A DNA stretch of 64,000 bases from an uncultured bacterium (GCA_937903035.1 CALCZP010000003.1:1156-65155); one strand, 5' to 3'; shown: positions 49,866 to 64,000, counted from the stretch's first letter. Notes: generated by a model from the letters alone, not told the origin. Numbers and translations: made by a program.

Positions 49866-50106
49866 AGTGTATTGAGGAATCGAATGCCTGAACTTTCTTC
49901 AATAAAACATCTTGATTAAGTTTAAGCGCCATCTTTACTGTCGAAGGAATACGAAGTGAGAGCTTCCCCTTAGTAATACTAATTTGTGTTGGAGTGATAG
50001 TGATATGGAGTACTTCACTACAAATAGCTGCAAGTGTTTCAGTGTACGTAGTTTGCTTGTCGATGTTTTTCTTGAGATCGGCAAGAATAGACTGAAAGAG
50101 TGACAT
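49855..50106 (-). CDS. Small hypothetical protein after dnaN (83 aa; YaaA/S4-like position)
   Basis: ORF only; assignment based on conserved position downstream of dnaN. Confidence 0.35.
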   Translation of the reverse strand: MSLFQSILADLKKNIDKQTTYTETLAAICSEVLHITITPTQISITKGKLSLRIPSTVKMALKLNQDVLLKKVQAFDSSIHSIG

Positions 50107-50107
50107 A

Positions 50108-51205
50108 TTAACGGTTTGTTGGCATGATCAAATATAGGAAGGAGGTATCCTGTACACTTCGTACTACAATAGGCTTATTTGGCGCTGTAAATGATATTGA
50201 GACACTATCGCCAGAGAGTGCTTGAAAGACATCGAGAAAGTACTTTAGATTGAAACTAACCTCAATCCCCTCACCTTCAACAACGGCATCAATTGATGAA
50301 ACCGATGAACCGACATCATTATTCTTTGAATCAATTGTAATTCTCTTATTAACAGGAGAAACAGAAAAAAGTACTTGGAAAAATTTGTCAGCAAAAATAG
50401 TTGAGAGGCGAAGTGTTGAAATAAGCTCTTGTTTCATAAGTACCACCTTAGTTGTTTCAGTTTTTGGAATAATAAGTTGATACTGTGGAAAGGCCCCATC
50501 AATCAGTCGAGTAGTAAAGTAAATACCATTTCCCGAAAGTGATAACTGGTTTCGAGTAAATGTTAATTGAAGATTCTCTGGTGCATTATCAAGTACTTTT
50601 AATATATCAGCAATATTTTTATATGGAATCAATATTTTTGGAATATCAGGAATATTCTTAACCTTTAATTTCTTTTCAGCGAGACGGAATGAGTCGGTTG
50701 CGACAAAACAGAGGTTAGTATCTTCACTATAAATAAAAATACTTGCAATCTCAGGCTTAATCTCAGTGATAGCAGCAGAAAAGTACACCGAACGAATACC
50801 TTCTTGAAATACCGTACTTTTAATTTCAAAACTTTCACCTTCAACAGTAGGAAGTGTTGGGAAGTCATCATGGTTAAGACATTTAAGTACAGTCTTTGAT
50901 TGTAGGGTCGCAATAGTGAGATTATCTGCTTCAAGTGTAAGTGAGAGCTCTAGATTATCCTTTAAATTTCCACAAACATTTGATAGTAAGTCCCCTTTTA
51001 CAAGTACAATACCTTCTTCTTCAATCGTTGCAGGGATATCTATCTCAATTCCAACATTGAGATTAGTAGCTCTGATCTTGAGAGATTTTCCTGAAGCATT
51101 AATAAGGAGTCCATGAAGTGATGGGAGAGTGAGATTCTTGCCAGTCATACGCTCTGCAAGGGATACTGCTTGTTTTATTTTTTCTACGGTACATCGAGCT
51201 TTCAT
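50108..51205 (-). CDS. dnaN: DNA polymerase III beta sliding clamp
   Basis: 365 aa with a three-domain beta-clamp pattern. Immediately downstream of dnaA. Confidence 0.9.
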   Translation of the reverse strand: MKARCTVEKIKQAVSLAERMTGKNLTLPSLHGLLINASGKSLKIRATNLNVGIEIDIPATIEEEGIVLVKGDLLSNVCGNLKDNLELSLTLEADNLTIATLQSKTVLKCLNHDDFPTLPTVEGESFEIKSTVFQEGIRSVYFSAAITEIKPEIASIFIYSEDTNLCFVATDSFRLAEKKLKVKNIPDIPKILIPYKNIADILKVLDNAPENLQLTFTRNQLSLSGNGIYFTTRLIDGAFPQYQLIIPKTETTKVVLMKQELISTLRLSTIFADKFFQVLFSVSPVNKRITIDSKNNDVGSSVSSIDAVVEGEGIEVSFNLKYFLDVFQALSGDSVSISFTAPNKPIVVRSVQDTSFLYLIMPTNR

Positions 51206-51401
51206 AGTAGTGTTTTATTTTTTATTAATTGATTGAGTAGTTAGTATGTGTTGTGGATTGGGGAAAAGATGATTGTACGTTTTTAAATAAGGATTTTTTA
51301 AATATGAGCACTGTGTGCGAATTGGTGATATATCCTCCCTTTTTCTTATACCTAGTATTTTTCCGCAAGTTATTCATCGTGGTATTAGGATGTTTTCCAC
51401 A
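51206..51401. promoter_or_regulatory. dnaA-dnaN intergenic region with DnaA-box-like motifs and an AT-rich tract (candidate oriC/DUE)
   Basis: ttttccaca (51394-51402) and tgtggattg (51253-51261) match TTWTNCACA. AT-rich run tttttaaataaggattttttaaatat. Confidence 0.45.
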
Positions 51402-52763
51402 TCATTTAAACAATATGCGGATATCCTCAATCTCTTTCATTAGACTCGGGTTATGTACTAACTCACTTTTAATTTTTTCATACGAATGAATGACTGTACT
51501 ATGATCTTTACCACCAAGTTTTGAACCGATTGATGGGTATGACTCATTGAAATCCTCTCGAAGGACGAACATAATGACTTGTCGTGCTCGAACAATTTCT
51601 TTACGCCGTGTTTTCTCATAAATAGTACGTTCATCAAGATTGTAATACCCTGATACAAGTTTCACTACTGTATCAAAAGACACCATTTTCTTTGGTTTAA
51701 CACTATTTTTAATAAGTAATTTAATCTCACTGAGTGCAACAGGTTTTTGACGCATTTCAGAATGCATTGCAATAACATTGAGTATTCCTTCAAGTTCACG
51801 GATACTTCCGGTTGCAACTGAAGAGATATATTGGAGAACCTCATTATCAAGTGGATATGGAAGTGTTGCAGCCTTTTCTCGAATAATAGCAAGACGTGAC
51901 TCCATATCTGGTTCTTGAATATCAATAGTCATACCTGCATTAAATCGTGTTTTAAGACGATCTTCGAGACCGAGGATGTGGTTTGGATGTTTATCAGATG
52001 AAAAGATAATATTCTTCCCTTGCTCATAGAGCGTATTAAAGAGGTGAAATAGTTCGTTCTGAGTACCATCTTTTCCTGAGATAAATTGGATATCATCAAT
52101 GATTAATACGTCTATTTTTCGAAACTTCTCACGGAATGACTGCTGACGATTGTTTTGTACTGAAGTCACAAACTCATTCATAAACTTTTCAAGTGAGGTA
52201 TAGAGTACATGCTTTTCAGGGAATGCTTTTTTAATCTCATTACCAATAGCTTGGATAAGGTGAGTCTTCCCTAAACCACTCTCACCATAGATAAAGAGTG
52301 GATTGTAGGCACTCTGAGGACGTTTTACCACTGCCTGGGAGGCTGCGTATGCAAGCTCGTTGAATGAGCCAACAATAAAACGATCAAAGGTGTATCGAGG
52401 GTTAAGGTTATCATCTCTATTAATATAGAGATCTTGCATTGGAAGTTGTGTTTTCTCTGTAAAAAGTGAATCGGTTGTTGTAGTTGTTGTAGGAGGAGTA
52501 AAGCGGCTGATAACAAATTCAACCCCTCGAATATTGTCGATATGGTTTACTAATGTCTTTAAAATAACTTTTTGGTATTTGGTTACCATCCATTCTCGTA
52601 CAAATTCGTTTGGTACTCCTATGTAAATAATACCCTCCTCTTCTTTAGTGATAGTGGTGTTCTTAAACCAGGTACTGAAATTACCTTTTGTGACTTCCTG
52701 TTCTATTTCTCCTAGGCAAGTGTTCCAGAGTGTGGAGAGGTCGTAGTGCATGGTATCTATCAT
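51402..52763 (-). CDS. dnaA: Chromosomal replication initiator protein DnaA
   Basis: AAA+ Walker A GESGLGKTHL, Walker B VLIIDDIQF, sensor/arginine finger, C-terminal HTH (…ARQVIMFVLRE…). Start trimmed to MIDTMHYD; the track ORF is extended across rpmH. Confidence 0.9.
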   Translation of the reverse strand: MIDTMHYDLSTLWNTCLGEIEQEVTKGNFSTWFKNTTITKEEEGIIYIGVPNEFVREWMVTKYQKVILKTLVNHIDNIRGVEFVISRFTPPTTTTTTDSLFTEKTQLPMQDLYINRDDNLNPRYTFDRFIVGSFNELAYAASQAVVKRPQSAYNPLFIYGESGLGKTHLIQAIGNEIKKAFPEKHVLYTSLEKFMNEFVTSVQNNRQQSFREKFRKIDVLIIDDIQFISGKDGTQNELFHLFNTLYEQGKNIIFSSDKHPNHILGLEDRLKTRFNAGMTIDIQEPDMESRLAIIREKAATLPYPLDNEVLQYISSVATGSIRELEGILNVIAMHSEMRQKPVALSEIKLLIKNSVKPKKMVSFDTVVKLVSGYYNLDERTIYEKTRRKEIVRARQVIMFVLREDFNESYPSIGSKLGGKDHSTVIHSYEKIKSELVHNPSLMKEIEDIRILFK

Positions 52764-52876
52764 ACCGAGTATTGGGTAGCTATCAAAATTGTGTATATCA
52801 TGTGGATAGTGTTGATTATAGCAATATATATCAGGCTTGATTAAATAAACCTTTTTGTGTATAGTGAGCGAGTTAT
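52764..52876. promoter_or_regulatory. rpmH-dnaA divergent intergenic region with three DnaA-box-like motifs (dnaA promoter/autoregulation, possible oriC part)
   Basis: tgtggatag (52801-52809, reverse complement CTATCCACA), gtgtatata (~52791) and tgtgtatag (~52858). Confidence 0.45.
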
Positions 52877-53011
52877 ATGTCTCAAACATACCAACCTAAA
52901 AAACGAAAGCGCGCAACTACTCATGGATTTCTCGTCCGTAGCGCTAGTGCGACTGGTCAGAAAGTCCTTCAGGCACGTCGCCGTAAGGGACGCGCTAAAA
53001 TCGCTGTCTAG
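52877..53011 (+). CDS. rpmH: 50S ribosomal protein L34
   Basis: Hand translation gives [44 protein letters not shown]. It is absent from the ORF track because it is shorter than 60 aa. Confidence 0.85.
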
Positions 53012-53013
53012 CT

Positions 53014-53337
53014 ATGTTGCCGTCAACTGAACGGCTTACTCGCCTCGAGTTTCCTCTTGTACTTACTAATCCGTCTCTTAAAACGGTCTATAATGCGCTT
53101 GGTACCCTTAAATATACCACTACACTACCTTTGAAATGTGCTGTAATTACAAGCTCAAAACACGAAAAACGCGCTGTTATACGCAATAAACTTCGCCGAC
53201 GCATCTATACACAAATGGTTGGTTTTCCAGGGTCTGCTGTTTTGTATGTTTCAAAACAAAGTTATGGTATGGAATATCAACAAATAGAGCAGCTTTGGCA
53301 TGAATTACTCTCAAAAATTCAAAAAAATACCAAATAA
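53014..53337 (+). CDS. rnpA: Ribonuclease P protein component
   Basis: RNR motif RNKLRRRI, 107 aa, directly after rpmH. Confidence 0.85.
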   Translation: MLPSTERLTRLEFPLVLTNPSLKTVYNALGTLKYTTTLPLKCAVITSSKHEKRAVIRNKLRRRIYTQMVGFPGSAVLYVSKQSYGMEYQQIEQLWHELLSKIQKNTK

Positions 53338-53566
53338 TATAGCTATTTTAGCTATTAAGGTATATCGAGGACTACTCTCGCCTTCAGTCGGATTGTTGCG
53401 ATTTTTACCTCTATATCCGACTAATACCTGTATTTTTCATCCAACATGTTCTCAGTATGCCATTATGGCCTATACAAAATACGGGTTTTTTGACGCAACC
53501 CATAAAACAATAGGTCGTATTGGTCGTTGTCATCCTAGAAATACACCTTCTGTTGACTATCCTTAA
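53300..53566 (+). CDS. yidD: Membrane protein insertion efficiency factor YidD
   Basis: YRGLLSP…CIFHPTCSQYA motif. The 5' end overlaps rnpA, so the true start is probably downstream of 53300. Confidence 0.7.
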   Translation: MNYSQKFKKIPNNIAILAIKVYRGLLSPSVGLLRFLPLYPTNTCIFHPTCSQYAIMAYTKYGFFDATHKTIGRIGRCHPRNTPSVDYP

Positions 53567-53595
53567 GGTAGGTTTTAGACTACACTACCCTTTAT

Positions 53596-54300
53596 ATGCA
53601 AACATTGTGGACCAACTTCATTTACGACCCTATTTATAACGCCCTTATTTTTATTGCACAGAACTTAACCTGGCAAGACGTTGGTGTGGCGGTTATCGTC
53701 CTTACTATCCTTATTCGGCTCATATTGATGCCCCTTTCTAAGAAAAGTATTGCTGGACAGTATAAAATGAAGCTTTTAGAGCCAAAGCTTGCTGCTATCA
53801 AGGCAAAAGGTCTTTCAAAAGAAGAAGAAGCAAAAGAAACCTTTGCACTTTATAAGACTGAGAAAATTAACCCGTTTTCAGGATGTCTTTATCTCTTAAT
53901 CCAACTTCCAATTCTTTTTGCCCTCTACTTCACGTTTATGCGTGGTGTGATTCAGCCGGAGCACTTGTACTCATTCCTTTCAACTGAAGGTCTCCATAAT
54001 ACACTATTTGGACTTATTGATATCACTAAGCCATTTCTACCACTCGCTATCCTTGCGGGTATTAGTCAGGGTGTACAGGCATATTTTGCACCAAAACCGT
54101 CGATTCCAACTGATGGAAAAGGATTTCAGGCACAATTTGCGCAGAGTCTTTCACTCCAGACTAAATATATCCTCCCAATTATCATTATCCTTATCGCTAG
54201 TCGTCTTGCCGCCGCTGTCGCGCTCTATTGGACCATTACCAATATCTTTTCTATTGTTCAGGAATACTATCTCCGAAAACGTTTTGCCGTTAGTTCTTAA
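53596..54300 (+). CDS. yidC: Membrane protein insertase YidC (short Oxa1-type, 234 aa)
   Basis: Five-TM Oxa1 core with a charged first loop (KLLEPKLAAIKAKG) and the conserved YWTITNIFSI C-terminal region. Confidence 0.8.
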   Translation: MQTLWTNFIYDPIYNALIFIAQNLTWQDVGVAVIVLTILIRLILMPLSKKSIAGQYKMKLLEPKLAAIKAKGLSKEEEAKETFALYKTEKINPFSGCLYLLIQLPILFALYFTFMRGVIQPEHLYSFLSTEGLHNTLFGLIDITKPFLPLAILAGISQGVQAYFAPKPSIPTDGKGFQAQFAQSLSLQTKYILPIIIILIASRLAAAVALYWTITNIFSIVQEYYLRKRFAVSS

Positions 54301-55545
54301 TTAAAACGAGAGCTGCCATAACAGGCCAGTTGGCTTGTCGATAAAAAAGACGATATCTTGGTTCTCATCTACCTGAAGATTAGTTGCATCAGGTGCTCGC
54401 TCTGTACCATCTGAAAGAATCGTGTAGGTATTACTTGTTGTATAGATACGATAGAACTTATCTTTAAAGCTAACAAGTCCGCTATACCACATGTCAGGGT
54501 AGCTTCCGGGTGCCATTTCCCCATTTCCTGCACAGATGAGATCCTCATTTTTAAGCCAAGTACATTTTTCAGGGAGTAGTGCAATATTTAGATTGTTTGA
54601 TACCCCTGTTTTCGTATTTAAAAGCCGAGTAATAAAGCCAGTACTTGTGCTTTGTGAGTATAAAATATAGGTCCCACTTGGACTTACTGATGTGGTAAGA
54701 CCTTTAATATTCCCAAGTACGCGAACAAGTCTTCGATCAGTTGTATCTATTTTATAGAGAAAACCATCTGCAATAGCTGCTGCTTTGGTTTGGAGCCAAA
54801 CTGTTTTTGGTGTTGATTGAATAATTATCCATTCATGAAACGGTGTTCGAAGGAGCTCTTTTCTACCTGTATTTTGACTAGTTGCGCTCAAAATACTAGC
54901 GTTTTGAGTATCACTTGTGAGATATGTAATCTGTTTTTGGTCGGCATAAACTGAAAGGTTGGTGATTTTTTCAGGAAGATATATCCCCTGTTTTTGCGTT
55001 CTAGTACCATCTTGGTTTTCAGGTGGAATCGGAACACTATATGTTGCGATTGTGCGCTGGTCATCACGAAGAAAACGAAGGATTGCAGTATTGTTTGTAT
55101 CCGCAAAGTGTCCTTCATAAACGTTAGGAATATAGATATTACTGATCTGAAGCGGTGTTGTACTGTTTCGGATCTCATACACATAGCCATTCCCTCGAGC
55201 AATATAGCGAATAACACGATCAACCACTGTTTCTGTTGTTGGTTTTTTCTTGGGATCCTCTGAAGGGATCGTCTTTGATAGGGTTTGAGTAAATGCAGAA
55301 AAACCCGCAACAGGGCTTTGGCTAAGCTGTTTGAACTTTAGTGATGTATTCTGACCTGTTTGAACGCCAGTACTACCATCATTGATAATGAGATCGCTTC
55401 CGGGTGCTACCAATGCATCACTAGGAAAGAATGTTGTTGCACCTGGAGGTTGTTCAGTACTAGTTGGTTGTTTTTTACTGTACCAATACAAAATTCCTGT
55501 GCTAACCAATAGAATTATTACTATCACAATAAGTACTTTTCGCAT
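54301..55545 (-). CDS. Hypothetical membrane-anchored extracellular protein (414 aa), first gene after the origin block in the T4SS-like cluster
   Basis: N-terminal TM, Thr/Ser-rich sequence, possibly a beta-propeller-like domain. Confidence 0.4.
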   Translation of the reverse strand: MRKVLIVIVIILLVSTGILYWYSKKQPTSTEQPPGATTFFPSDALVAPGSDLIINDGSTGVQTGQNTSLKFKQLSQSPVAGFSAFTQTLSKTIPSEDPKKKPTTETVVDRVIRYIARGNGYVYEIRNSTTPLQISNIYIPNVYEGHFADTNNTAILRFLRDDQRTIATYSVPIPPENQDGTRTQKQGIYLPEKITNLSVYADQKQITYLTSDTQNASILSATSQNTGRKELLRTPFHEWIIIQSTPKTVWLQTKAAAIADGFLYKIDTTDRRLVRVLGNIKGLTTSVSPSGTYILYSQSTSTGFITRLLNTKTGVSNNLNIALLPEKCTWLKNEDLICAGNGEMAPGSYPDMWYSGLVSFKDKFYRIYTTSNTYTILSDGTERAPDATNLQVDENQDIVFFIDKPTGLLWQLSF

Positions 55546-55570
55546 ACAAGTATTGTACTATATGTAGAAT

Positions 55571-57271
55571 TTATATTCTTCGAATGTATAAAGAATATTT
55601 CTTCTGAATACGAGTATTTGCCCATTTAACAATAGGGTTTTCTCCTACAGAAGGGTTTGGGGATGAACGGACATCCATAAGGGTTCCATCTCCTATATAG
55701 ATGAGTACATGCCCCCCTGATGTATAAGGTTTAGCACCACCCGCTTGCCATCCTATTAAATCGCCAACCTTAACCTCAATACCATTTATAAGATATTTAC
55801 CGTTTTTATTTTCGACAGTTATTATTTTTTCTGTTCCATTAAAAATATCACCAGTAAATGCTTCTGTTTTTGGTGTTATTCCCGCACATGAAAGTACTGT
55901 ATTTACATATGAACTACAATCAAGATTGATTACGGTAGATGAATATGCGGTTCCTCGTGCATCTTGTGAATAAGATACTCTACCCTTAAAACTCTGTGCA
56001 ATAGTAGGTATTGTACCAGCGCCAATATTTTTTGCGGGACAAATAATTCCTGCTGGGAATTTAATACTTTTAAAATCATATCCAGTTCCACCTTTTCCTG
56101 ACCCCACTGATCCTGATTTTGGTGGTATATCCCCTCCTTCTTCAAAATCTACCCCCACCGCCACCTTATTCAAGCTAATACTATTCTCTACAAGCTTCGG
56201 ATTGATGGTATTTAATATCAGATAGGCAGACAATGCCAACGCAAGCCCTCCTAATGCCTCAAAGAAGCCACTCTTGGCACTTGCCTTCAAAAACGGTATA
56301 TCAGTCACAATATACTGATATCCCTCATAGACGAGACGAAGCACCAACAATACTGCCGCCAAACTCACCAACAGTTTGAACATATAGTTCAGAAAGTCAT
56401 TAATGTCACAGATCTCCCCTCCCTTTCCCTTCTGAGATCGTTGTTCTTCACACAGGTCAGGATCCAAAAGTACTGAGAGTCCTGGAAATGGTGCAAGGAG
56501 ACGGTATGAGCGGGAGTCGAAGTCGGATTGAACAGAAGCTGCGTCTGTTGCAACTTTTCCTTTGTCAGAAGTGAGTATGCCAACATCAGTAACCATCTGC
56601 TTCCCTGTTGGAGAAGTGAGAAGTATTTTATAGTAGTACTTCACTTCGGTACCAAGGTCATTCAATGACCAATAGAGAGATCCGTCTGCGGCAACACCTT
56701 CAGTACTTCCTGAGATATCTGTTTTTGATTTAAAGAGCTTAGTACTACCCGAAGCATTCATTACTCCATCAGGAAGTGGTACGGTATCTAGATATAATGT
56801 CGCGGTGAATTTCTTGAAATCAGGGTGAATTGTTGTATTAATTTTACTACTAACAATTAGTGGAGTGCCTTTGGTTATTGTTGCAGGATCTGCTGCAAGG
56901 AATGTTTCTTGTGGAGTAACGATATAAAAGTCTTTCCCTTGGGCGTCACGTGCGGCAAGTCCAACAAAATAGCGTTTATCGGTCGGTATAGTGGTAACTA
57001 CTTGTGAGGCAGTTGCACCAGGCTTCAAATTGTTAATAGCGACAGTACTACTGCCTGAAACTTTAGTGTCCTGATTTAGTATTGTTGTCGTTGAAGGCGT
57101 AAAAACAAGATAGAATAACTTGTTTTTGTCAGTTGTCGGTAGGGTATATGTTACTAAAAGGCCACCTTGTTGTAATTGAGATGTAAGTGTATATCCATTA
57201 CCAGCGTGCACTAGATTGATCGGAATAACTACAAGGAGAAAGCCAAGAAGTGCAATAAAGCCCTTTTTCAT
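55571..57271 (-). CDS. T4SS-associated cell-wall hydrolase-like protein: signal peptide, extracellular domain, shared 2-TM module, C-terminal NlpC/P60-CHAP-like domain
   Basis: The C-terminus has a Cys...His pattern (DCSSYVNTVLSCAGI … GGHVLIYIGDG) like CHAP/NlpC-P60. The central 124 aa are identical to the paralogue. Confidence 0.55.
   Translation of the reverse strand: MKKGFIALLGFLLVVIPINLVHAGNGYTLTSQLQQGGLLVTYTLPTTDKNKLFYLVFTPSTTTILNQDTKVSGSSTVAINNLKPGATASQVVTTIPTDKRYFVGLAARDAQGKDFYIVTPQETFLAADPATITKGTPLIVSSKINTTIHPDFKKFTATLYLDTVPLPDGVMNASGSTKLFKSKTDISGSTEGVAADGSLYWSLNDLGTEVKYYYKILLTSPTGKQMVTDVGILTSDKGKVATDAASVQSDFDSRSYRLLAPFPGLSVLLDPDLCEEQRSQKGKGGEICDINDFLNYMFKLLVSLAAVLLVLRLVYEGYQYIVTDIPFLKASAKSGFFEALGGLALALSAYLILNTINPKLVENSISLNKVAVGVDFEEGGDIPPKSGSVGSGKGGTGYDFKSIKFPAGIICPAKNIGAGTIPTIAQSFKGRVSYSQDARGTAYSSTVINLDCSSYVNTVLSCAGITPKTEAFTGDIFNGTEKIITVENKNGKYLINGIEVKVGDLIGWQAGGAKPYTSGGHVLIYIGDGTLMDVRSSPNPSVGENPIVKWANTRIQKKYSLYIRRI
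56152..56525. repeat. Copy 1 of a perfect ~373-bp direct repeat
   Basis: Identical nucleotide run to 58080-58453 by direct comparison of the sequence lines. It encodes DFDSRSYRLLAPFPGLSVLL…KLVENSISLNKVAVG. Confidence 0.85.
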
Positions 57272-57291
57272 TCTTCAAGTGTACCACGGTA

Positions 57292-58854
57292 TTATTTATA
57301 CCTTCGTTCTGCCTCATCACGTGAAGAAATAATAGTCCCTGTTTTACATTGGTTATATACCCATACTTTCATGGCAATATCTTTTCGAAGTGAAGTACTG
57401 CATCCAAGTCCTGCAAAGTTATTAAAAATTTGGGCAGGTGTCCCACCATTACACGTTTTAACCGCTGCTTGAAAACGAGTGACACTCATCTGAATATTTT
57501 TTTCAGGATCATAGTAGATATTGATTGCATCAGCGACTGTTTTTGCACCAGCCTTAATTAGGTCATCATTGTTTTCTACAGGATCAAGAAGGATTGTTGT
57601 AGGGCTTGCTCGTTTTGGATATAAAACACCATTTTCTTTTGTTGCTGCGAGATAGGTTGTTTCATTGTTGTAAGGTGCAGGAAATACTGTTACCTGCGAA
57701 AGTCCAAACCCTTTTGAAAAGCGCCAGTCATAGTCTTTGTAAATATCGGTACTTGATCGAGGGCACTGGTTAAGAACTTTTTTATCACCATAGAGTGCCG
57801 TTGAGCCAGTAAATTTTTCACCATTAAACTTGATTCCTGATTGTACAAAAATACGACGTGACTTAATACTTGAAAGACTAGTTACATTTTCATCACATGA
57901 AATATTTTTTGCATCCCAGTCTGATTCAACAGTGTTTGAAGCAATCAAGTAACAAGGGTCAAGACCTGCTTTTGTAGCAAGTGTTTTGGTTAGTGTAATG
58001 TACTCCTGTTTTGTTTTTGATGGCTTACCAGTGATTTTAGTGAACTGTGCATCACTAATTGATCCACGGTACTCCTCAATCCCCACCGCCACCTTATTCA
58101 AGCTAATACTATTCTCTACAAGCTTCGGATTGATGGTATTTAATATCAGATAGGCAGACAATGCCAACGCAAGCCCTCCTAATGCCTCAAAGAAGCCACT
58201 CTTGGCACTTGCCTTCAAAAACGGTATATCAGTCACAATATACTGATATCCCTCATAGACGAGACGAAGCACCAACAATACTGCCGCCAAACTCACCAAC
58301 AGTTTGAACATATAGTTCAGAAAGTCATTAATGTCACAGATCTCCCCTCCCTTTCCCTTCTGAGATCGTTGTTCTTCACACAGGTCAGGATCCAAAAGTA
58401 CTGAGAGTCCTGGAAATGGTGCAAGGAGACGGTATGAGCGGGAGTCGAAGTCTTGTTGAGTTGCAGGTATTGCACTTGCGCCTGCGGCGCTGGTTGTTGT
58501 TGTGTTATATACTTTTGATTCTTCGGTTGTTTTCCCGTCTGATACTTTTTGTTTGAAATAGTATGTTGTGCTCGGGGTAAGATCGGTGAATGTCCATCCA
58601 TAGGTACCATCATTCCCTATTGCTTTTGTCGGAGGAATATCAGTTTTGATAACTGTTTTAAAATCTGCAACATTACTTAGATAGCCTTTAATACTAAATG
58701 TTTTGAATGTTGGATGTTTTACGGTATCTATCTTTCCTGCAACAGAAAAAGTACTACCACTAATCTGTGTTACGAGGTCTTGTTCAACAAGTGCCGCATG
58801 AGCAATCGAGTATGGAATTGCTAAAAAAAAGAGTGCAATAACTAAACGCTTCAT
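57292..58854 (-). CDS. T4SS-associated protein: signal peptide, FN3-like extracellular domain, shared 2-TM module, C-terminal lysozyme/lytic-transglycosylase-like domain
   Basis: Same central module as the NlpC/P60 paralogue. The C-terminal domain is rich in conserved-looking acidic and aromatic residues (…LIASNTVESDWDAK…GLSQVT…). Start may be M1 (58887) or M12 (58854). Confidence 0.5.
   Translation of the reverse strand: MKRLVIALFFLAIPYSIAHAALVEQDLVTQISGSTFSVAGKIDTVKHPTFKTFSIKGYLSNVADFKTVIKTDIPPTKAIGNDGTYGWTFTDLTPSTTYYFKQKVSDGKTTEESKVYNTTTTSAAGASAIPATQQDFDSRSYRLLAPFPGLSVLLDPDLCEEQRSQKGKGGEICDINDFLNYMFKLLVSLAAVLLVLRLVYEGYQYIVTDIPFLKASAKSGFFEALGGLALALSAYLILNTINPKLVENSISLNKVAVGIEEYRGSISDAQFTKITGKPSKTKQEYITLTKTLATKAGLDPCYLIASNTVESDWDAKNISCDENVTSLSSIKSRRIFVQSGIKFNGEKFTGSTALYGDKKVLNQCPRSSTDIYKDYDWRFSKGFGLSQVTVFPAPYNNETTYLAATKENGVLYPKRASPTTILLDPVENNDDLIKAGAKTVADAINIYYDPEKNIQMSVTRFQAAVKTCNGGTPAQIFNNFAGLGCSTSLRKDIAMKVWVYNQCKTGTIISSRDEAERRYK
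58080..58453. repeat. Copy 2 of the perfect ~373-bp direct repeat
   Basis: Identical to 56152-56525. Confidence 0.85.
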
Positions 58855-58855
58855 A

Positions 58856-59806
58856 CTAGTTGAACAAAATAGTAAACAGTCGCTCAATATGCTGCAAGCT
58901 ATATGCTACTGTGCTGATTGCGAGATTGACTCTACTCTCCCCTCCTTCATCAGGACGTGAAAGACGAAGTTCGTTTACACGTGGATCTCCTGCGATTGCA
59001 GTATCTCCAGCGCTCATTTCTATATTGAGACTATCCATAATTGATCCAAGAAATGAAAAGAAAAAAGGTTCAAAGTGGAGGATAAGCCCTGCCTGGTTTG
59101 TTGTAATAGATTGAGTACTCCCAATCGCATAGTTGATAAATCCGTCATTATTTTGATACGCAACCAATGATGGAGAGACCGGGGTTATGGTTACTGCATT
59201 TGTGCCGACAAATGAGCCTGATTCAAGGGTTAGTTCAACTGTATCACTCGTCGCTAGTGCACCATTTTGAAATACAAAGCTTGATTTGTTATACCCTGAG
59301 CTATCTTGCTGTATTTCGTCGTTGTGAGACCATTTAAAAACATTATTTTTAGGAGCAGTTGCTGCAGGAATACCTACTACTCGGATAAGGGCTCCATCTG
59401 CAGGAAGTGCTTTTCCTTTATAAAAAGGTGGTGTGTATGAGTCAGCTGCCTCCCACAAGAGATCAACACTTGCAGGTCTCAGTGTTATTGAGGCAGTTGC
59501 GGGGATAATTGTTCCTGAGGTTGTTGCGATAATAATACCTGTCTGACCTGCCTTTGGTGCAGTTACAACAATTTCGGTTTTGCCCGTACCCGAAGTAATC
59601 AAGGCACCATTGTATTTCCACGTAATAACTGTCTGATTTAAATCAAGGCTAAAACTCTGAGCCTTCAAAAAGACTTGCTGGCCAGGGGCAGGATTTCCTG
59701 GAGTAGCAGTAATTGCCATGTCTGCTGACTGCGCAACGACTGTTCGTGGTATGAGTACATATACAGATAGTACGATAGCTGCCACAATGGCTCGATACAT
59801 GTCCAA
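58856..59806 (-). CDS. Secreted hypothetical protein (316 aa) in the T4SS-like cluster
   Basis: Signal peptide MDMYRAIVAAIVLSVYVLIPRTVVAQS. Confidence 0.45.
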   Translation of the reverse strand: MDMYRAIVAAIVLSVYVLIPRTVVAQSADMAITATPGNPAPGQQVFLKAQSFSLDLNQTVITWKYNGALITSGTGKTEIVVTAPKAGQTGIIIATTSGTIIPATASITLRPASVDLLWEAADSYTPPFYKGKALPADGALIRVVGIPAATAPKNNVFKWSHNDEIQQDSSGYNKSSFVFQNGALATSDTVELTLESGSFVGTNAVTITPVSPSLVAYQNNDGFINYAIGSTQSITTNQAGLILHFEPFFFSFLGSIMDSLNIEMSAGDTAIAGDPRVNELRLSRPDEGGESRVNLAISTVAYSLQHIERLFTILFN

Positions 59807-59822
59807 AGTATAGCACTTTTAC

Positions 59823-61637
59823 TTAGTGTTGCTCACGAAACTCCTGCTTTGCACGCTGAATCGAAATCACCTGGGAAGGATCTGATGTAATAATTTGGTC
59901 TTCGGTATATGAGGCAATGATTTTAAGTGCGACATGTTTGAGACCAGCAAAGAATATCCCCTCCCCAACACCTGACTCGAGCAAGAGATATTTTTCTTCA
60001 TCGGTAAGGTTGAATGTCTTTTGGAGGACATCTACCGTTGACGGTGATTGCTTGAGGAGTAGTTGAATGGATGAGTTGGTCACAATCGGTACGCCATACG
60101 GACTCTTCATAAAGTCACCTACGTCTTGGGTGATCGTACAGAGTCCGAGGTAATATTTACGCCCACGTTTTGCAATCGAGTACAAAAATGATGCTGTGTC
60201 ATCTGATTTCATCATCCACCACGCCTCATCAACTACAAGGAGGCGCTTTTTGAGTTGTTTACGGACAGCATTCCAAATAAAGTGTGTCACGATGTACATC
60301 GCTGCTGGTTTGAGATCGTCCTCCATGTCTCGTACCGAAAAGACCACAAATTTTTTGTTAATGTCGACGTTGGTTGGCTGGTTGATGAATGTTGCCCATG
60401 AGCCGTGGGTATATTTGGTGAGACGAGCAAGGATAGACTCTGTGCCCTCCATACCTGAGAGTACCATTTCAAAGTCCGAGAGGAGTGGTGGCTCAATACT
60501 GCGAAAGTCTGACTCCGCAGTGATATCTTTGAGACTATATGTTTCGGTGATCGCACGGTCAATAATAGAGTCTTCCTCAGGAGATAGCCCCCCAAGCATA
60601 ATACGCATGAGTCCGACGATATTGATGATATTGCTTCTGAGGACATCTGATGGAGACTCATCTTCCCGAGGGATTGGTAGGTCAAATGGGTTGATATGGT
60701 GATCTGATGAGAGTGAAATGTTAAAGTATCGCCCACCAATCGCTTCGGCGAGATATTCGTATTCACGTTCAGGGTCGATCACGATCACATCAGTATCAAA
60801 CATGAGGGTTCGCACAATTTCAAGTTTGGTTGCGTATGACTTACCTGCACCGGATTTGGCAAAGATAATTGAGTTATAGTTTTCAAGGGAAAATCGATCG
60901 AAAATCACGAGTGATGAGTTGTGGCGATTCACACCATAGAGAATCCCCGTCTCACTCGTAAGGTCAAATGAAACGAATGGAAACATACTCGAGATTGGCT
61001 CCGAGTTCATCTTTTGAGTCACATTGAGCATATCAGTACCAATCGGTGTCACCGTCTTGAAACCGTCTTCTTGTTGAAAGAGTGTTGGCTTGATATAGAT
61101 CATTTTGGATTCAAGCATGCTCTTGATCTCGCTCTCACTTCGAAACAGATCGGTTTCGTTATCAGCATAAATGGTGATATAGAAACCAATGTTAAACATC
61201 TTTTCTTGTGCTTGAGTTAGGTTGTCACGAAGCTCTTCGAGGTCTTGGTATGCGGTATCAAGCATTGGGTCCCTGACGAGACCTTTTTGTTGACGGACAA
61301 TAATCTGACTTTCAACCTCGGCAATTTTCTTTTGAAAATGTTTAAGGAGCTCTGCTGTTTCGATCGGATTTACGTAGATTGCAATATCAAAGACTTTGTC
61401 GAGGTTGATGATCGGAGTGAGCCAGTTGTCAGTGAGAAAACGCGGGTATGAGATGACAAAAAAGGTACGGACAAGTTTGTCCCCAATACGCATTGCTTTT
61501 GGGGTGATCTCAATCGCTGATGGTGCGATTTTGTCGGAGAGCTCCATTGTTGCCCATTCATGAATATCAGCTGTTGAAATAGGCAGGAGTTTACTTCCAT
61601 TTGTTGGTTCTTGTTTTGCTGAGCCGAATATCGACAT
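59823..61637 (-). CDS. VirB4/TrbE-family type IV secretion ATPase, C-terminal part (ATPase domain)
   Basis: Walker A FAKSGAGKSYATK, Walker B LLVVDEAWWMM, and the VirB4 C-terminal region. Confidence 0.8.
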   Translation of the reverse strand: MSIFGSAKQEPTNGSKLLPISTADIHEWATMELSDKIAPSAIEITPKAMRIGDKLVRTFFVISYPRFLTDNWLTPIINLDKVFDIAIYVNPIETAELLKHFQKKIAEVESQIIVRQQKGLVRDPMLDTAYQDLEELRDNLTQAQEKMFNIGFYITIYADNETDLFRSESEIKSMLESKMIYIKPTLFQQEDGFKTVTPIGTDMLNVTQKMNSEPISSMFPFVSFDLTSETGILYGVNRHNSSLVIFDRFSLENYNSIIFAKSGAGKSYATKLEIVRTLMFDTDVIVIDPEREYEYLAEAIGGRYFNISLSSDHHINPFDLPIPREDESPSDVLRSNIINIVGLMRIMLGGLSPEEDSIIDRAITETYSLKDITAESDFRSIEPPLLSDFEMVLSGMEGTESILARLTKYTHGSWATFINQPTNVDINKKFVVFSVRDMEDDLKPAAMYIVTHFIWNAVRKQLKKRLLVVDEAWWMMKSDDTASFLYSIAKRGRKYYLGLCTITQDVGDFMKSPYGVPIVTNSSIQLLLKQSPSTVDVLQKTFNLTDEEKYLLLESGVGEGIFFAGLKHVALKIIASYTEDQIITSDPSQVISIQRAKQEFREQH

Positions 61638-61685
61638 TGGTAGCTATAGTATAGCAGTATATTACTGCAAGTGGATGGAGTATGA

Positions 61686-62327
61686 CTATGAACCGTTTGC
61701 TTGAGTCGTTGTTTCTCCAGGATTGTATGTCTTGTAGAGTAGTTCGATAACTTCTTGTGTTCCGAGTTGTGCCACGCGAAGACCAAGTCTGGTGAGTCCT
61801 TGTTCTACAACACTCATACGCTGTTCAATTTGTGTTCGTTCTTCTTCAAAGTTTTTAATATCATCTCCTATGGTGTCTTTACCTTTGTTTAAAAACGAAA
61901 GTATTTTTGATACCCCTCCCCCTTTTTGGTTGAGTACTGGTGGAATATATGGGATGACTACAAAGAAATTTTTGCGCATGATGTTGACGTTGTCAGTAAA
62001 TGAGCGGATGAACTCAATGTATTCCCGTGTTTGTACTTGGAGGAGTTGTTCTTGTTGTTCCTTGAGTCTGTTTTCAAGAGTGACGAGGTATGGTCTCACA
62101 TCATAGCGTCGTGATTGGATCACTATTTCGATTGGAAAGTCGAGTGTATTGAGAAAGCTTTGGAACTGCACCAATGTTGCTCGCTGTTCATCATATGACT
62201 TAAGCGAGAGATTGATCGAGGACACGAGTACTACAGATGCAAGTGTCCCATCTTTCAAGACCACGATACCATCGCGTACTTCTTGGACAGGGACAAATTG
62301 TTGGGCTGGAGTACCGATGATTGCCAT
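61686..62327 (-). CDS. VirB4/TrbE N-terminal domain encoded as a separate ORF
   Basis: IVVLKDGTLASVVLVSSINLSLKSYDEQRATLVQFQSFLNTL parallels the VirB4 N-terminus. Same frame as the downstream ATPase ORF, separated by 48 nt containing three stops. Confidence 0.55.
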   Translation of the reverse strand: MAIIGTPAQQFVPVQEVRDGIVVLKDGTLASVVLVSSINLSLKSYDEQRATLVQFQSFLNTLDFPIEIVIQSRRYDVRPYLVTLENRLKEQQEQLLQVQTREYIEFIRSFTDNVNIMRKNFFVVIPYIPPVLNQKGGGVSKILSFLNKGKDTIGDDIKNFEEERTQIEQRMSVVEQGLTRLGLRVAQLGTQEVIELLYKTYNPGETTTQANGS

Positions 62328-62336
62328 ACTGTAGAT

Positions 62337-62753
62337 TTAGTTAGTCGGATTTTGAACGTCGAGGCTCCATGAGAGGGTTTTGAGTTTACTCTCAGAAAGT
62401 GTAGCACGATTTGTAGGAGCAGCCGGGATAGATTTCTTTGTTTCAACTTTTTGTTGTGATCGCCAGAGGTAGAGTCGTGAGCGCAGATAGTATTTGATGA
62501 ATGATTCAACTGTATATATAAAGGGCTTTTCGTTGTACTTGAAAAAAGCGAGCGCAAGTGCAAAGCCTGCAAATGCTGGGACAAGTACGATTGCGACAAA
62601 TGCGGGGAGAAACTTCATCGACAGATAGGCAAATCCTGCTCCCCCGGCAAGGTATGCGAACTGTTTGAAGGTGAGTGGTCCAAAGACCTTGTCTTCGATA
62701 TCAATAAATTGTGGAACCTTAAACTGCATAGGTATAGTATAGCGTGAACGCAT
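62337..62753 (-). CDS. VirB3/PrgI-like small two-TM T4SS membrane protein
   Basis: 138 aa with two adjacent TM helices (FAYLAGGAGFAYLSMKFLPAFVAIVLVPAFAGFALALAFF), immediately upstream of virB4. Confidence 0.5.
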   Translation of the reverse strand: MRSRYTIPMQFKVPQFIDIEDKVFGPLTFKQFAYLAGGAGFAYLSMKFLPAFVAIVLVPAFAGFALALAFFKYNEKPFIYTVESFIKYYLRSRLYLWRSQQKVETKKSIPAAPTNRATLSESKLKTLSWSLDVQNPTN

Positions 62754-62785
62754 ACAAAAAGCGCCTCAGTGGGAGGCGCTTTTTG

Positions 62786-63307
62786 TTAGAGATCGATTGG
62801 TTCGCGGTAGAGATCTGCTGATGCAGGAGGTGTAGTGCTTGTCGGAGTTTTATTGAGACTCACATCGCGCTTCATCGGAGGTGCAATCACTGCTGATTGG
62901 GTGAAGCGGCTCCCCATTGTTTCAAGTGCTGTCTGAGAAATGGTTTGCGTAGATTCAAGTTCTGCTTTTTTGAGCTCTTCTTCTGTCGGGCTAAAAAAGG
63001 TGCTGATCTCTGCTGCACGACTCAGGATTTCGACATTGATAGCATAGAGGATATTGACTGCAAGCTTCTCGTCTACTCCCTGTGCTTTCCATTCTTCCGC
63101 AATATCTTCTACGGTTTTGAGTCCCAGTACCAGCATTTTTGCGGCATGCTCTACCATTGTTTTCTGAGTATCAGAAAGGTTGAGTGCCTTTGCTATGGCA
63201 TTTATGAGGACAGTGAAGCTCTTGCTCGACATGAAGTGGAGCACCTCAGGTGGTGTTGTTGCAAATGCTTCTTCGATCGGGTCTATTGTAGTGGTATCAG
63301 TATCCAT
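62786..63307 (-). CDS. Hypothetical acidic protein (173 aa) in the T4SS-like cluster
   Basis: ORF only. Confidence 0.35.
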   Translation of the reverse strand: MDTDTTTIDPIEEAFATTPPEVLHFMSSKSFTVLINAIAKALNLSDTQKTMVEHAAKMLVLGLKTVEDIAEEWKAQGVDEKLAVNILYAINVEILSRAAEISTFFSPTEEELKKAELESTQTISQTALETMGSRFTQSAVIAPPMKRDVSLNKTPTSTTPPASADLYREPIDL

Positions 63308-63309
63308 GG

Positions 63310-63954
63310 TTATTTTTTGGGTTCTGCTGGCTTCTCATCTCCCCCTTCTTTCTTTTTCTTACTTTCTTCGTCATTATTATACTTTTCAAGCTTTTCTTTT
63401 TGAATGTCACGCTCTTTGATTGCTTCTCGCAGTTCTTTGATTGAAGCTCGTCGTTCTTCGTTGGCAACTCGAGCGGTAATTTTATCAGCATCAGATGATG
63501 ATGGATTTTTGATGATAGCCTCATCCTTCTCGATCTCTGTCTCCAGCTTCGCGACATTTGTTGCAACCGCGCGCTTGAGGTCATGTTGTGGATCATCAAT
63601 CTTGATGTTGTCTGCATCAAGGTGTTCATTACCAGGTATACTCTTGATTGCTTCTTTAAGCGTATTCTCGTACATATCAATCTTTGCCTGTATCTTTGCA
63701 GCGGTCGTACCGGTTTGTTTTTGCGCCGCCTTGATAGTGGCATCGGCTGCTTTGAGATGAATGTTACCGATCTGATCAATAGCTCCACCTGCAAGATCGA
63801 TACCAACTGCTGTACTAATAGTGCCTACCAATCCTGGAGCAACTACGCCTAGCGTGCCAGCCAAAGTCCCTATTGCTGTTCCTAGTGGGGCACGCTCACC
63901 CTCTGTCATCCATAGTGAGTTTGCCTTGAGATTCTCAGCATATTCAGCACGCAT
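63310..63954 (-). CDS. Hypothetical coiled-coil, Lys/Glu-rich protein (may extend beyond the window)
   Basis: ORF with a long coiled-coil and KE-rich tail. An upstream start beyond position 64000 cannot be excluded. Confidence 0.35.
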   Translation of the reverse strand: MRAEYAENLKANSLWMTEGERAPLGTAIGTLAGTLGVVAPGLVGTISTAVGIDLAGGAIDQIGNIHLKAADATIKAAQKQTGTTAAKIQAKIDMYENTLKEAIKSIPGNEHLDADNIKIDDPQHDLKRAVATNVAKLETEIEKDEAIIKNPSSSDADKITARVANEERRASIKELREAIKERDIQKEKLEKYNNDEESKKKKEGGDEKPAEPKK

Positions 63955-64000
63955 TGCAGCTTCAAATGCTTTCTTATTTTTGATAGGACCGTATTGTGCA

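Follow-up and report, generated by a model that had tools for sequence, protein, structure and literature searches.

Two tandem genes share an exact internal repeat

The DNA analyzed here is a 64-kb stretch from an uncultured bacterium (GCA_937903035.1, CALCZP010000003.1:1156-65155; hereafter the window, or W), and its source is a Saccharimonadia-like Patescibacterium. Within a type IV secretion system (T4SS) gene cluster of this window, two tandem minus-strand genes, here termed A and B, share a direct repeat of 372 bp that is exact (0 mismatches, offset of 1928 bp; Table 1) and that corresponds to exactly 124 codons in each gene. The encoded segment (DFDSRSY...KVAVG) is identical in the two proteins, as an earlier note on this DNA had claimed, and comprises residues 250 to 373 of A and residues 146 to 269 of B in its longest open reading frame (ORF), or 135 to 258 of the 520-amino-acid (aa) product. 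The same note had described a perfect repeat of 373 bp at 56152-56525 and 58080-58453; the repeat is real, but these ranges are one base too long at each end, where the positions mismatch. On either side of the repeat, identity falls abruptly to background (10 to 19 matches per 50 bp), and no third copy was detected by tblastn within the window. Below, related loci or contigs and related proteins are designated by analysis labels beginning with L and P, respectively.

An exact match of this length cannot have arisen by chance. Searches against Rfam returned only tRNAs within the window and no RNA family at the repeat, so that there is no RNA explanation for it. A programmed inversion or shufflon was rejected as well: the two copies have the same orientation, and only short, weak inverted repeats lie close by.

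Domain architecture of A and B

Both proteins consist of a signal peptide, one or more FN3-like domains, a pilin-like unit (the module, encoded by the repeat), and a peptidoglycan hydrolase. The genes are the second and third downstream of virB4, lie on the same strand, and are separated by a gap of 20 bp. The longest ORF of B (57292-58887, 531 aa) starts at a TTG at 58887 and overlaps the end of an upstream 314-aa gene by 32 nt; the ATG at 58854 is the start chosen by gene callers and gives a canonical signal peptide (MKRLVIALFFLAIPYSIAHA). Hydropathy analysis of A revealed transmembrane (TM)-like segments at residues 1 to 26, 292 to 318, and 335 to 353. A single BLASTP alignment between the two proteins spans A115 to A379, and the domains just upstream of the module are 38% identical over 89 aa. 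A and B had been described as otherwise unrelated, which holds for their C-terminal enzyme domains but not for their N-domains, as these are distant homologs and both proteins belong to one family.

Structures were modeled with AlphaFold2 (AF2) for full-length B (predicted local distance difference test score [pLDDT] of 71) and for the N-domain plus module of B from an 83-sequence alignment (pLDDT of 81). The N-terminal beta-sandwich of B matched FN3 domains in a Foldseek search of the PDB (E = 1.6e-4, target-normalized TM-score up to 0.72). It is followed by a small helix/hairpin/helix element with two invariant cysteines (residues 129 to 166), two TM helices joined by the short basic loop TDIPFLKASAKSG, a disordered linker, and an alpha-rich C-domain, and hydropathy was consistent with this modeled layout. 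Given the basic loop, the positive-inside rule would place the loop in the cytoplasm and hence both flanking domains outside the cell. Invariant cysteines C159 and C173 (numbering of the 520-aa product) lie in the putatively extracellular segment before TM1 ('DPDLC...ICDIN') and suggest a conserved disulfide loop in this pilin-unit subfamily. The FN3-like N-region of A (aa 24-249) is about 115 residues longer than that of B (aa 21-134).

The C-terminal domains are predicted peptidoglycan hydrolases

The C-domain of A scored above the cut-offs of both PF00877 (25.8 bits; cut-off, 23) and PF05382 (26 bits; cut-off, 21), and 'DCSSYV' (Cys motif) and 'GHVLIYIG' (His motif) line up with the catalytic motifs of CwlO (8wt3/23tz). 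These matches confirm at the sequence level the NlpC/P60-like C terminus read by the earlier note, and A is a predicted endopeptidase that would cut peptide stems. The lysozyme-like C terminus proposed for B also found support, in this case through its relatives. Orthologs of the domain (P0004, P0005, P0009, P0012, and L002:9245-11059) match PF01464 (SLT), and in a profile search of PDB sequences with the family profile A3, the catalytic 'ES' within 'A-T-I-x-x-E-S' and the motif 'DPExNI' (more generally 'DPxxNI') aligned to MltC and Slt70 (E = 0.017). These alignments support a putative SLT-like lytic transglycosylase, which would cut glycan strands. A phmmer search with B gave no match, and NCBIfam yielded nothing usable for A or B. 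Hallmarks of the VirB1/PrgK class are present in both genes, namely predicted hydrolase domains with catalytic residues and a location inside a T4SS operon.

Tandem pairs tend to join a glycan cutter with a peptide cutter: SLT with P60 in W, VanY with SLT in L002, and SLT with VanY in L014 and L010. At the enzyme position of two loci, the C-terminal 207 aa (L003:1270-2766 and L004:8071-9522) form a further C-domain, termed X, which carries the motifs FEGF...CSWRTNNPGNIGN.DCS and had no Pfam or PDB sequence match. It may be an unrecognized wall-acting domain.

The repeated module resembles a complete VirB2-like pilin

The earlier note had likened the two-TM module to VirB2/TrbC-type pilins, and comparisons across the family agree with this reading. 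Matches to PF18895 (T4SS_pilin; curated gathering cut-off, 26.6 bits) at E <= 0.01 were found in 52 of 83 family members (best E = 1.2e-6), and matches to TrbC/VirB2 (PF04956) in 7 of the 83. Conversely, a hidden Markov model (HMM) of the module retrieved proteins that themselves pass the PF18895 cut-off (L050, 37.2 bits; L064, 38.5; L057, 30.7; L082, 27.3), and an alignment showed that the invariant G68, G93, and L-N-T-x-N-P columns are common to the module and these bona fide PF18895 proteins. An exhaustive search of a 50% representative library returned 6758 relatives of the module at E <= 1e-3, and one related protein, P0008, is named 'pilin' by NCBI. The 124-aa module alone gave no match in a word-indexed protein search, a limitation of that index.

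In the module, an N-terminal motif, 'YxLLAPxPG', is followed by a loop with two Cys residues; TM1 and TM2, separated by a short basic loop, come next, and 'ILNTINPKL' forms the invariant end. Several short PF18895 pilins likewise carry the pre-TM 'YxLLAPxPG' motif, and in the pilins of Southlakia epibionticum the PF18895 match stops 4 to 16 residues before the C terminus. Together, the homology, the shared motifs, and the end of the PF18895 match near pilin C termini identify the 124-aa repeat, at the level of sequence, as one predicted complete mature pilin unit, with FN3-like sequence inserted before it and an enzyme appended after it. They support its assignment as a putative VirB2-like pilin unit and a divergent relative of PF18895. 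The signal peptide and the two-TM hairpin with a short basic loop typical of such pilins are seen in AF2 models and hydropathy plots, and VirB4-like, TrsD-like, and PrgI genes lie directly upstream, consistent with a T4SS cluster with VirB4 and VirB3. The small stand-alone form of about 100 to 140 aa is not found here, as the two proteins have 520 and 566 aa with globular domains on either side of the hairpin. A proposed likeness to the membrane anchor of PrgK was not supported, as PrgK has a single N-terminal TM segment and not a mid-protein pilin hairpin. Two further relatives, P0177 (618 aa) and P0179 (612 aa), each contain four separate stretches matching the pilin module and appear to be tandem multi-pilin polypeptides.

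Gene conversion between the tandem paralogs recurs across lineages

The same tandem pair, each time with its own lineage-specific repeat, is present in at least six other Patescibacteria lineages at 79.5 to 100% identity over 332 to 820 bp. The repeat measured 820 bp at 100% identity in L004, 755 bp at 99.6% in L003, at least 411 bp at 96.1% in L025, 452 bp with indels at 94.5% in L002, 529 bp at 86.6% in L034, and 332 bp at 79.5% in L077; that of L037 (96.9%) is cut by the contig end. A stretch of 319 bp was 66% identical in L070, and a repeat was undetectable at the DNA level in L066 and L086. Synonymous divergence (dS) between the two modules of one genome was 0 in W, L003, L004, and L034, 0.11 to 0.12 in L002 and L025, and 0.5 in L077, whereas module dS between genomes was saturated (at least 1.8). 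Module proteins from different genomes were 53 to 67% identical, with 90% for the closest lineage, L008.

An X plus NlpC/P60 pair with the same gene order is found in both L003 and L004, and each C-domain has its ortholog in the other genome (X, 68% identical over 207 aa; P60, 54% over 199 aa). Because this pair is present in both lineages, it predates their split, and the part shared by the two genes was homogenized independently afterwards: the N-domain plus module is 84 to 100% identical within each genome and the module is 100% identical, whereas between the two genomes the modules are 53 to 55% identical and the N-domains are essentially unalignable. Synonymous identity within genomes and a duplication older than the L003/L004 divergence, the two marks of concerted evolution, are thus both found. 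Downstream, the identical tract ends in every case about 10 to 15 codons past the invariant 'ILNTINPKLV', at the start of the nonhomologous enzyme domains, and its upstream edge is variable, falling at the module start in W, where the N-domains are 38% identical, and near the start codon in L004. Tract edges therefore track the limits of homology, as homology-dependent conversion predicts.

We conclude with high confidence that recent and repeated gene conversion between the tandem paralogs has left this repeat. Recent gene conversion had been among the explanations offered by the earlier note; the comparisons within and between genomes bear it out and extend it to many lineages. In the mechanism that we propose, the module would form a homologous block flanked by nonhomologous DNA, RecA-type recombination would repeatedly copy it between the genes, and the conversion tract would halt at the limits of homology. 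Conversion that stops where homology stops would account for the sharp edges of the repeat.

Alternative origins of the repeat

A repeat of this kind could also result from a one-off recent shuffling or duplication in each lineage, in which the module, or the N-domain plus module, was joined to a different enzyme. C-domains do get replaced between close strains (L011 and L013, described below), N-domains are swapped too, and the repeats of L003 and L004 take in the whole N-domain. Such an origin nevertheless appears quite unlikely. The X plus P60 pair is older than the L003/L004 split, yet its N-domain plus module is identical only within a genome, and within-pair identity is graded from 100% down to 66%, which fits repeated homogenization followed by decay. 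Moreover, the N-domains of W are old paralogs, so that copying was limited to the module, and such copying is by definition gene conversion.

An assembly artifact, either a spurious duplication or differing copies made identical by the assembler, had also been raised. The window derives from a short-read metagenome assembly (ENA ERZ650244 NODE_1, 405 kb, coverage of 36), and a contig from a third sample, L007 (ENA ERZ650287 NODE_1575), corresponds to window positions 53312-63119 minus 56525-58452 and is 100% identical elsewhere. The loss of exactly one 1928-bp unit in L007 creates a chimeric gene, in which the N-part and module of B are joined to the NlpC/P60 domain of A (P0002, 451 aa), and points to ambiguity of the assembly graph at the repeat. 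The ends of L007 (1-130 and 8011-8429) are mosaic, diverging from the window and including a different rnpA allele. The contig stems either from a strain with a natural deletion or recombination or from a collapse or chimera in low-coverage assembly. With mosaic ends and a coverage of only 5x, it was discarded as proof of natural deletion.

The two copies themselves were reproduced in an independent second sample (ERZ650271; 6.5 kb, coverage of 4.7), where both are present at 100% identity, and the reading frame is kept across both junctions, which yield complete proteins typical of the family. In addition, orthologous two-gene loci occur in at least six other lineages with tandem repeats of their own, and the imperfect ones (94.5% with indels, 96.1%, and 99.6%) leave the assembly unambiguous, so the two-gene arrangement is real and old. 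Bubble-popping during assembly could hide a few single-nucleotide differences at most, and we consider an artifact very improbable.

Strong purifying selection alone can be dismissed. No other part of the family is as well conserved as the module, and its copies in L025 differ at 9 synonymous and 0 nonsynonymous positions, which shows purifying selection on the module and is no proof of selection for identity. Within W, L003, and L004, however, the two copies agree at every one of the 86 synonymous sites, against a saturated dS between genomes, a pattern that refutes protein-level selection as the sole cause.

Exchangeable enzyme cassettes follow the module

A search with full-length B returned 92 relatives, and among the best 150 of the 6758 module relatives, nearly all have 400 to 900 aa with the module in mid-protein. 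C-domains among 83 members comprised VanY/M15 (18), NlpC/P60 (14), SLT (12), SLT_2 (11), and, more rarely, Peptidase_M15_4 (3), YkuD (3), GDSL (2), SLT_4 (2), and Amidase_2 (1), with some unassigned; every assigned type is of a kind predicted to act on peptidoglycan. At least nine C-domain families follow a single conserved junction, 'ILNTINPKLVxN' plus about 10 aa, and in many protein pairs the N-domain plus module is 93 to 100% identical and the C-domains are unrelated. In L011 and L013, 9 kb of flanking sequence is 99.3 to 99.7% identical, and the enzyme after the same module is SLT_2 in the former and SLT in the latter. The swapped segment (L011 5886-6534, L013 6886-7465) extends from about 10 nt past the module to the stop codon, and the difference between the two loci is an allelic cassette swap. 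P0034 and P0065 provide an example of an N-domain swap, and L008, a Logan contig with about 76% DNA identity to the window, contains one gene only, in which a B-like N-domain is combined with a C-domain of the P60 type. The module block would also provide a junction for the exchange of N- and C-terminal domains between strains.

Among these proteins, evolution is much faster in the FN3-like N-domains than in the enzyme domains: the former cannot be aligned between L003 and L004, where the enzymes are 54 to 68% identical. The rate, together with the differing number of these domains in A and B, suggests that the FN3-like N-domains are a surface under diversifying pressure.

No immunity-like gene that co-varies with the C-domain was found, the downstream 414- to 421-aa gene being constant in all loci examined, and no orphan cassettes were seen near the loci. 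A polymorphic toxin with immunity genes was accordingly rejected, as no downstream gene co-varies with the C-domain.

These observations bring up a reading that is compatible with our preferred explanation: the module would serve mainly as a recombination handle in a population-level variation system, by which cassettes of enzyme and FN3-like domains are deleted, duplicated, and exchanged in naturally competent strains, matching different host walls or escaping host defenses, much as polymorphic effector loci do. The number of C-domain types after one junction, the allelic swap between near-identical strains, the single-gene 'recombinant' loci L008 and L007, and the divergence of the L003 and L004 N-domains all fit such a system, and Saccharibacteria are naturally competent (PMC10633639). 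The lack of a co-varying immunity-like gene and of orphan cassettes nearby speaks against it, as does the chance that the deletion form of the window strain itself (L007) is an assembly collapse. On balance, we hold this reading to be unlikely.

The pair lies in an oriC-proximal T4SS cluster

The genes surrounding A and B (Table 1) form the oriC-proximal Patescibacterial T4SS cluster described by Quinonero-Coronel et al. (PMC12102498). On the same strand, the order is a 1260-aa polytopic protein, a 173-aa protein, PrgI/VirB3-like, TrsD-like, VirB4-like, a 314-aa protein, B, A, and a 414-aa protein; beyond the last of these are yidC, yidD, rnpA, and rpmH on the other strand, followed by dnaA and dnaN. 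The polytopic protein has no Pfam match, and its counterpart in L015 (6216-9998) has multiple TM segments. Synteny was seen in 10 loci, and the position of the fusion genes just downstream of virB4 is kept in every locus examined. The cumulative GC skew reaches its minimum (window, about 48000 to 60000) around dnaA (51402-52889, minus strand) and the rnpA-yidD-yidC group, consistent with a replication origin beside the T4SS cluster. An oriC/dnaA-proximal location is reported for many Patescibacteria, in which the T4SS near dnaA includes VirB2-like pilins (PMC12102498).

No stand-alone pilin gene was found in the cluster (window 54301-64000 and L015 1705-19007) by a broadened HMM search with filters off or by hydropathy. 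In the clusters of W, L001 to L004, and L008 to L012, the only detectable pilin-like hairpins are those of the fusion proteins, a statement limited to these clusters. In S. epibionticum, the hydrolases SEML1_0006/0007 and six short pilins (SEML1_0014-0019) are separate genes. The T4SS gene cluster of that species is essential (PMC10633639), and its peptidase and lysozyme homologs just downstream of virB4 are given as essential in a passage of PMC12102498 that cites PMC10633639.

Table 1. Features of the fusion genes and of the surrounding cluster in the 64-kb window
Feature	Position	Strand	Evidence or remark
Gene A, 566 aa: signal peptide, FN3-like N-region (aa ~24-249), pilin module, linker, predicted NlpC/P60 endopeptidase	55571..57271	-	
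Repeat copy 1, pilin-like module of gene A (aa 250-373)	56153..56524	-	Exact match; PF18895 stretch aa 290-356
Predicted NlpC/P60 catalytic core of A (aa 448-535), 'DCSSYV' Cys and 'GHVLIYIG' His motifs	55667..55930	-	PF00877, PF05382
Gene B, 520 aa from ATG 58854: signal peptide, FN3-like domain, pilin module, linker, SLT-like domain	57292..58854	-	
Repeat copy 2, module of gene B (aa 135-258 of the 520-aa product)	58081..58452	-	PF18895 match, 20 bits, E = 7e-4
FN3-like beta-sandwich of B (aa 28-126)	58477..58773	-	AF2 pLDDT ~90; FN3 matches in Foldseek PDB
Two TM helices of the B hairpin (aa 175-207, 211-241)	58132..58332	-	AF2 pLDDT ~90-94; hydropathy segments 177-203, 220-238
SLT-like C-terminal domain of B (aa 264-519), putative catalytic Glu in 'NTVES'	57298..58065	-	Orthologs, profile, AF2 pLDDT 80-95
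Conserved 414-aa secreted/anchored protein, last gene of the cluster	54301..55545	-	Unchanged when the upstream enzyme domain is swapped
Conserved secreted 314-aa protein between virB4 and the fusion genes	58856..59800	-	Same position in all related loci; no family
VirB4-like T4SS ATPase (604 aa)	59823..61637	-	PF19044 TraG P-loop, 87 bits; AAA_10; DUF87
TrsD/TraC-like protein resembling the VirB4 N-terminal region (213 aa)	61686..62327	-	NCBIfam VirB4_plasma stretch, TrsD; PF26593 TraC-like
PrgI/VirB3-like protein	62337..62753	-	PF12666, 42.9 bits
3' part of the 1260-aa polytopic membrane protein, VirB6-like by position and topology; runs past the window	63310..64000	-	

A proposed split hydrolase pair placed on the secretion system by a shared hairpin

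In the explanation that we favor, A and B would be exported by Sec and held in the membrane by the VirB2-type hairpin, and the identical hairpin would bring both enzymes to the same docking or assembly site of the T4SS, either through incorporation with or as pilin or through binding at its base. B, acting on glycan, and A, acting on peptide, would amount to a split equivalent of VirB1/PrgK, with two activities on two proteins that share one module. Wall cutting would thereby be placed where the machine crosses peptidoglycan, in the cell's own wall and possibly in that of the host. We regard this explanation as a whole, that is, conversion together with a split hydrolase pair on the T4SS, as probable; shared docking through the identical hairpin, its functional part, we rate at an even chance.

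Several points weigh against this explanation. A and B themselves score only 18.6 to 20 bits against PF18895 (E = 7e-4 to 2e-3), below the cut-off. No solved pilin structure was retrieved by a profile search of PDB sequences with the module, and Foldseek searches with the B models gave FN3 matches only and no pilin structure. Since a helical hairpin is a simple fold, the term 'pilin' draws on remote sequence homology and context, and a pilus has so far been demonstrated in no Patescibacterium (PMC12857230). The C-domain of B matches SLT at only E = 0.19 on its own, its assignment coming from orthologs and motifs, and the enzymes may act on either the cell's own wall or that of the host. That the modules are identical might be a neutral side effect of conversion and not a functional requirement. 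Finally, assembly from short reads can remove a few true differences where copies are nearly identical, and the value of 100% identity is thus perhaps slightly overstated.

Some of these points lend themselves to another account, in which the module is a generic two-TM anchor and not a functional pilin, and the hydrolases are ordinary membrane-tethered autolysins encoded in a T4SS operon. The subthreshold PF18895 scores and the lack of a structural match to solved pilins would agree with it, as would proteins four to five times the size of a pilin. A generic anchor, however, leaves aside that the invariant G, G, and ILNTINP are held in common with bona fide PF18895 proteins, that the module covers a whole mature pilin including the pre-TM motif of short pilins, and that the post-virB4 position is constant in a cluster with no other pilin. 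We judge this account improbable.

At the other extreme, the fusions might be the only T4SS pilins of this clade and co-assemble through their identical hairpins into a 'cell-wall-drilling pilus' that breaches host peptidoglycan, which we consider doubtful. If this were so, the cell would bear a short pilus or stalk that displays FN3 domains along with wall-cutting enzymes of complementary activity, conversion would be selectively kept because only identical hairpins pack together, and cassettes of enzyme and FN3 domains would be swapped to suit the wall chemistry or surface of the host. As a variant, the flanking domains might be cleaved at the module borders, by analogy with RP4 TrbC, which undergoes C-terminal processing.

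Comparison with known systems

Taken together, the locus is a real and informative feature and a new arrangement of known parts. The T4SS cluster, its pilin family, and the nearby hydrolases are already known, and the earlier note overlooked the complete mature pilin unit, its recurrence in many lineages, and the exchangeable C-terminal enzyme cassettes. In the literature that we could search, we found no description of a pilin-hydrolase fusion, of domain-restricted concerted evolution in tandem pairs, or of cassette-like enzyme variation. Published surveys treat pilins and wall hydrolases separately, whereas here a putative whole pilin unit is covalently joined to a hydrolase in at least 150 cluster representatives. 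The survey of Patescibacterial pilins required an i-Evalue < 0.001 and > 50% profile coverage (PMC12102498), and with whole-protein E values of 0.0017 to 0.002, A and B may fall just outside that screen. The arrangement raises the hypotheses that hydrolases enter the pilin assembly pathway, that wall-cutting specificity is modular and strain variable, and that the fast-evolving FN3 part faces outside. The Patescibacterial T4SS is essential for epibiotic growth (PMC10633639) and its role was called 'completely unknown' in a 2024 perspective (PMC11665869); the locus offers a concrete clue to how this unexplained machine is built. It also carries a warning for metagenome assembly, as collapsed single-gene versions of such loci may be artifacts.

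The module is closest to the Patescibacterial VirB2-like pilins (PF18895; SEML1_0014-0019 of S. epibionticum), which have a signal peptide, two TM segments, a basic loop, and a C-terminal 'ILNTINP' and are encoded in the oriC-proximal T4SS cluster with VirB4 and PrgI (PMC12102498). Unlike these, the unit described here is embedded between FN3-like domains and an enzyme of 190 to 260 aa, scores below the Pfam cut-off, and occurs in a cluster that, in contrast to that of S. epibionticum, has no stand-alone pilin. Pilins in published arrays are on average 25% and at most 54% identical (PMC12102498), compared with 94 to 100% for the paired units here. Tandem virB2 paralogs are also known from Bartonella and Anaplasma (PMC12102498; PMC3556328), where they are discussed as diversifying, and not homogenized as in the present case.

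The enzymes recall the VirB1-class hydrolases of monoderm systems (PrgK of pCF10, TraG of pIP501, and SEML1_0006/0007), with SLT and NlpC/P60 or CHAP domains beside virB4. Monoderm T4SSs usually combine both activities in a single VirB1-type protein, as in PrgK and TraG, whereas here they are divided between two. The anchor is a mid-protein pilin-like hairpin in place of the N-terminal segment of PrgK, the enzyme domain spans at least nine families, and the shared part is in concerted evolution. As in polymorphic toxins (CdiA-CT and Rhs; PMC3482391 for the concept), a conserved delivery part and a short invariant motif precede exchangeable C-terminal enzymes, and allelic swaps occur between close strains; in contrast to them, there are no co-varying immunity genes or orphan cassettes, all C-domains are predicted to act on peptidoglycan, and the carrier is a pilin-like hairpin in a T4SS operon. 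Lastly, like tufA/tufB and rRNA operons, the paralogs are identical within a genome and diverged between genomes, with tract edges where homology ends. Unlike in those systems, a single internal domain undergoes conversion here, within multidomain proteins that otherwise consist of nonhomologous domains, which makes the locus a clean natural example of domain-restricted concerted evolution.

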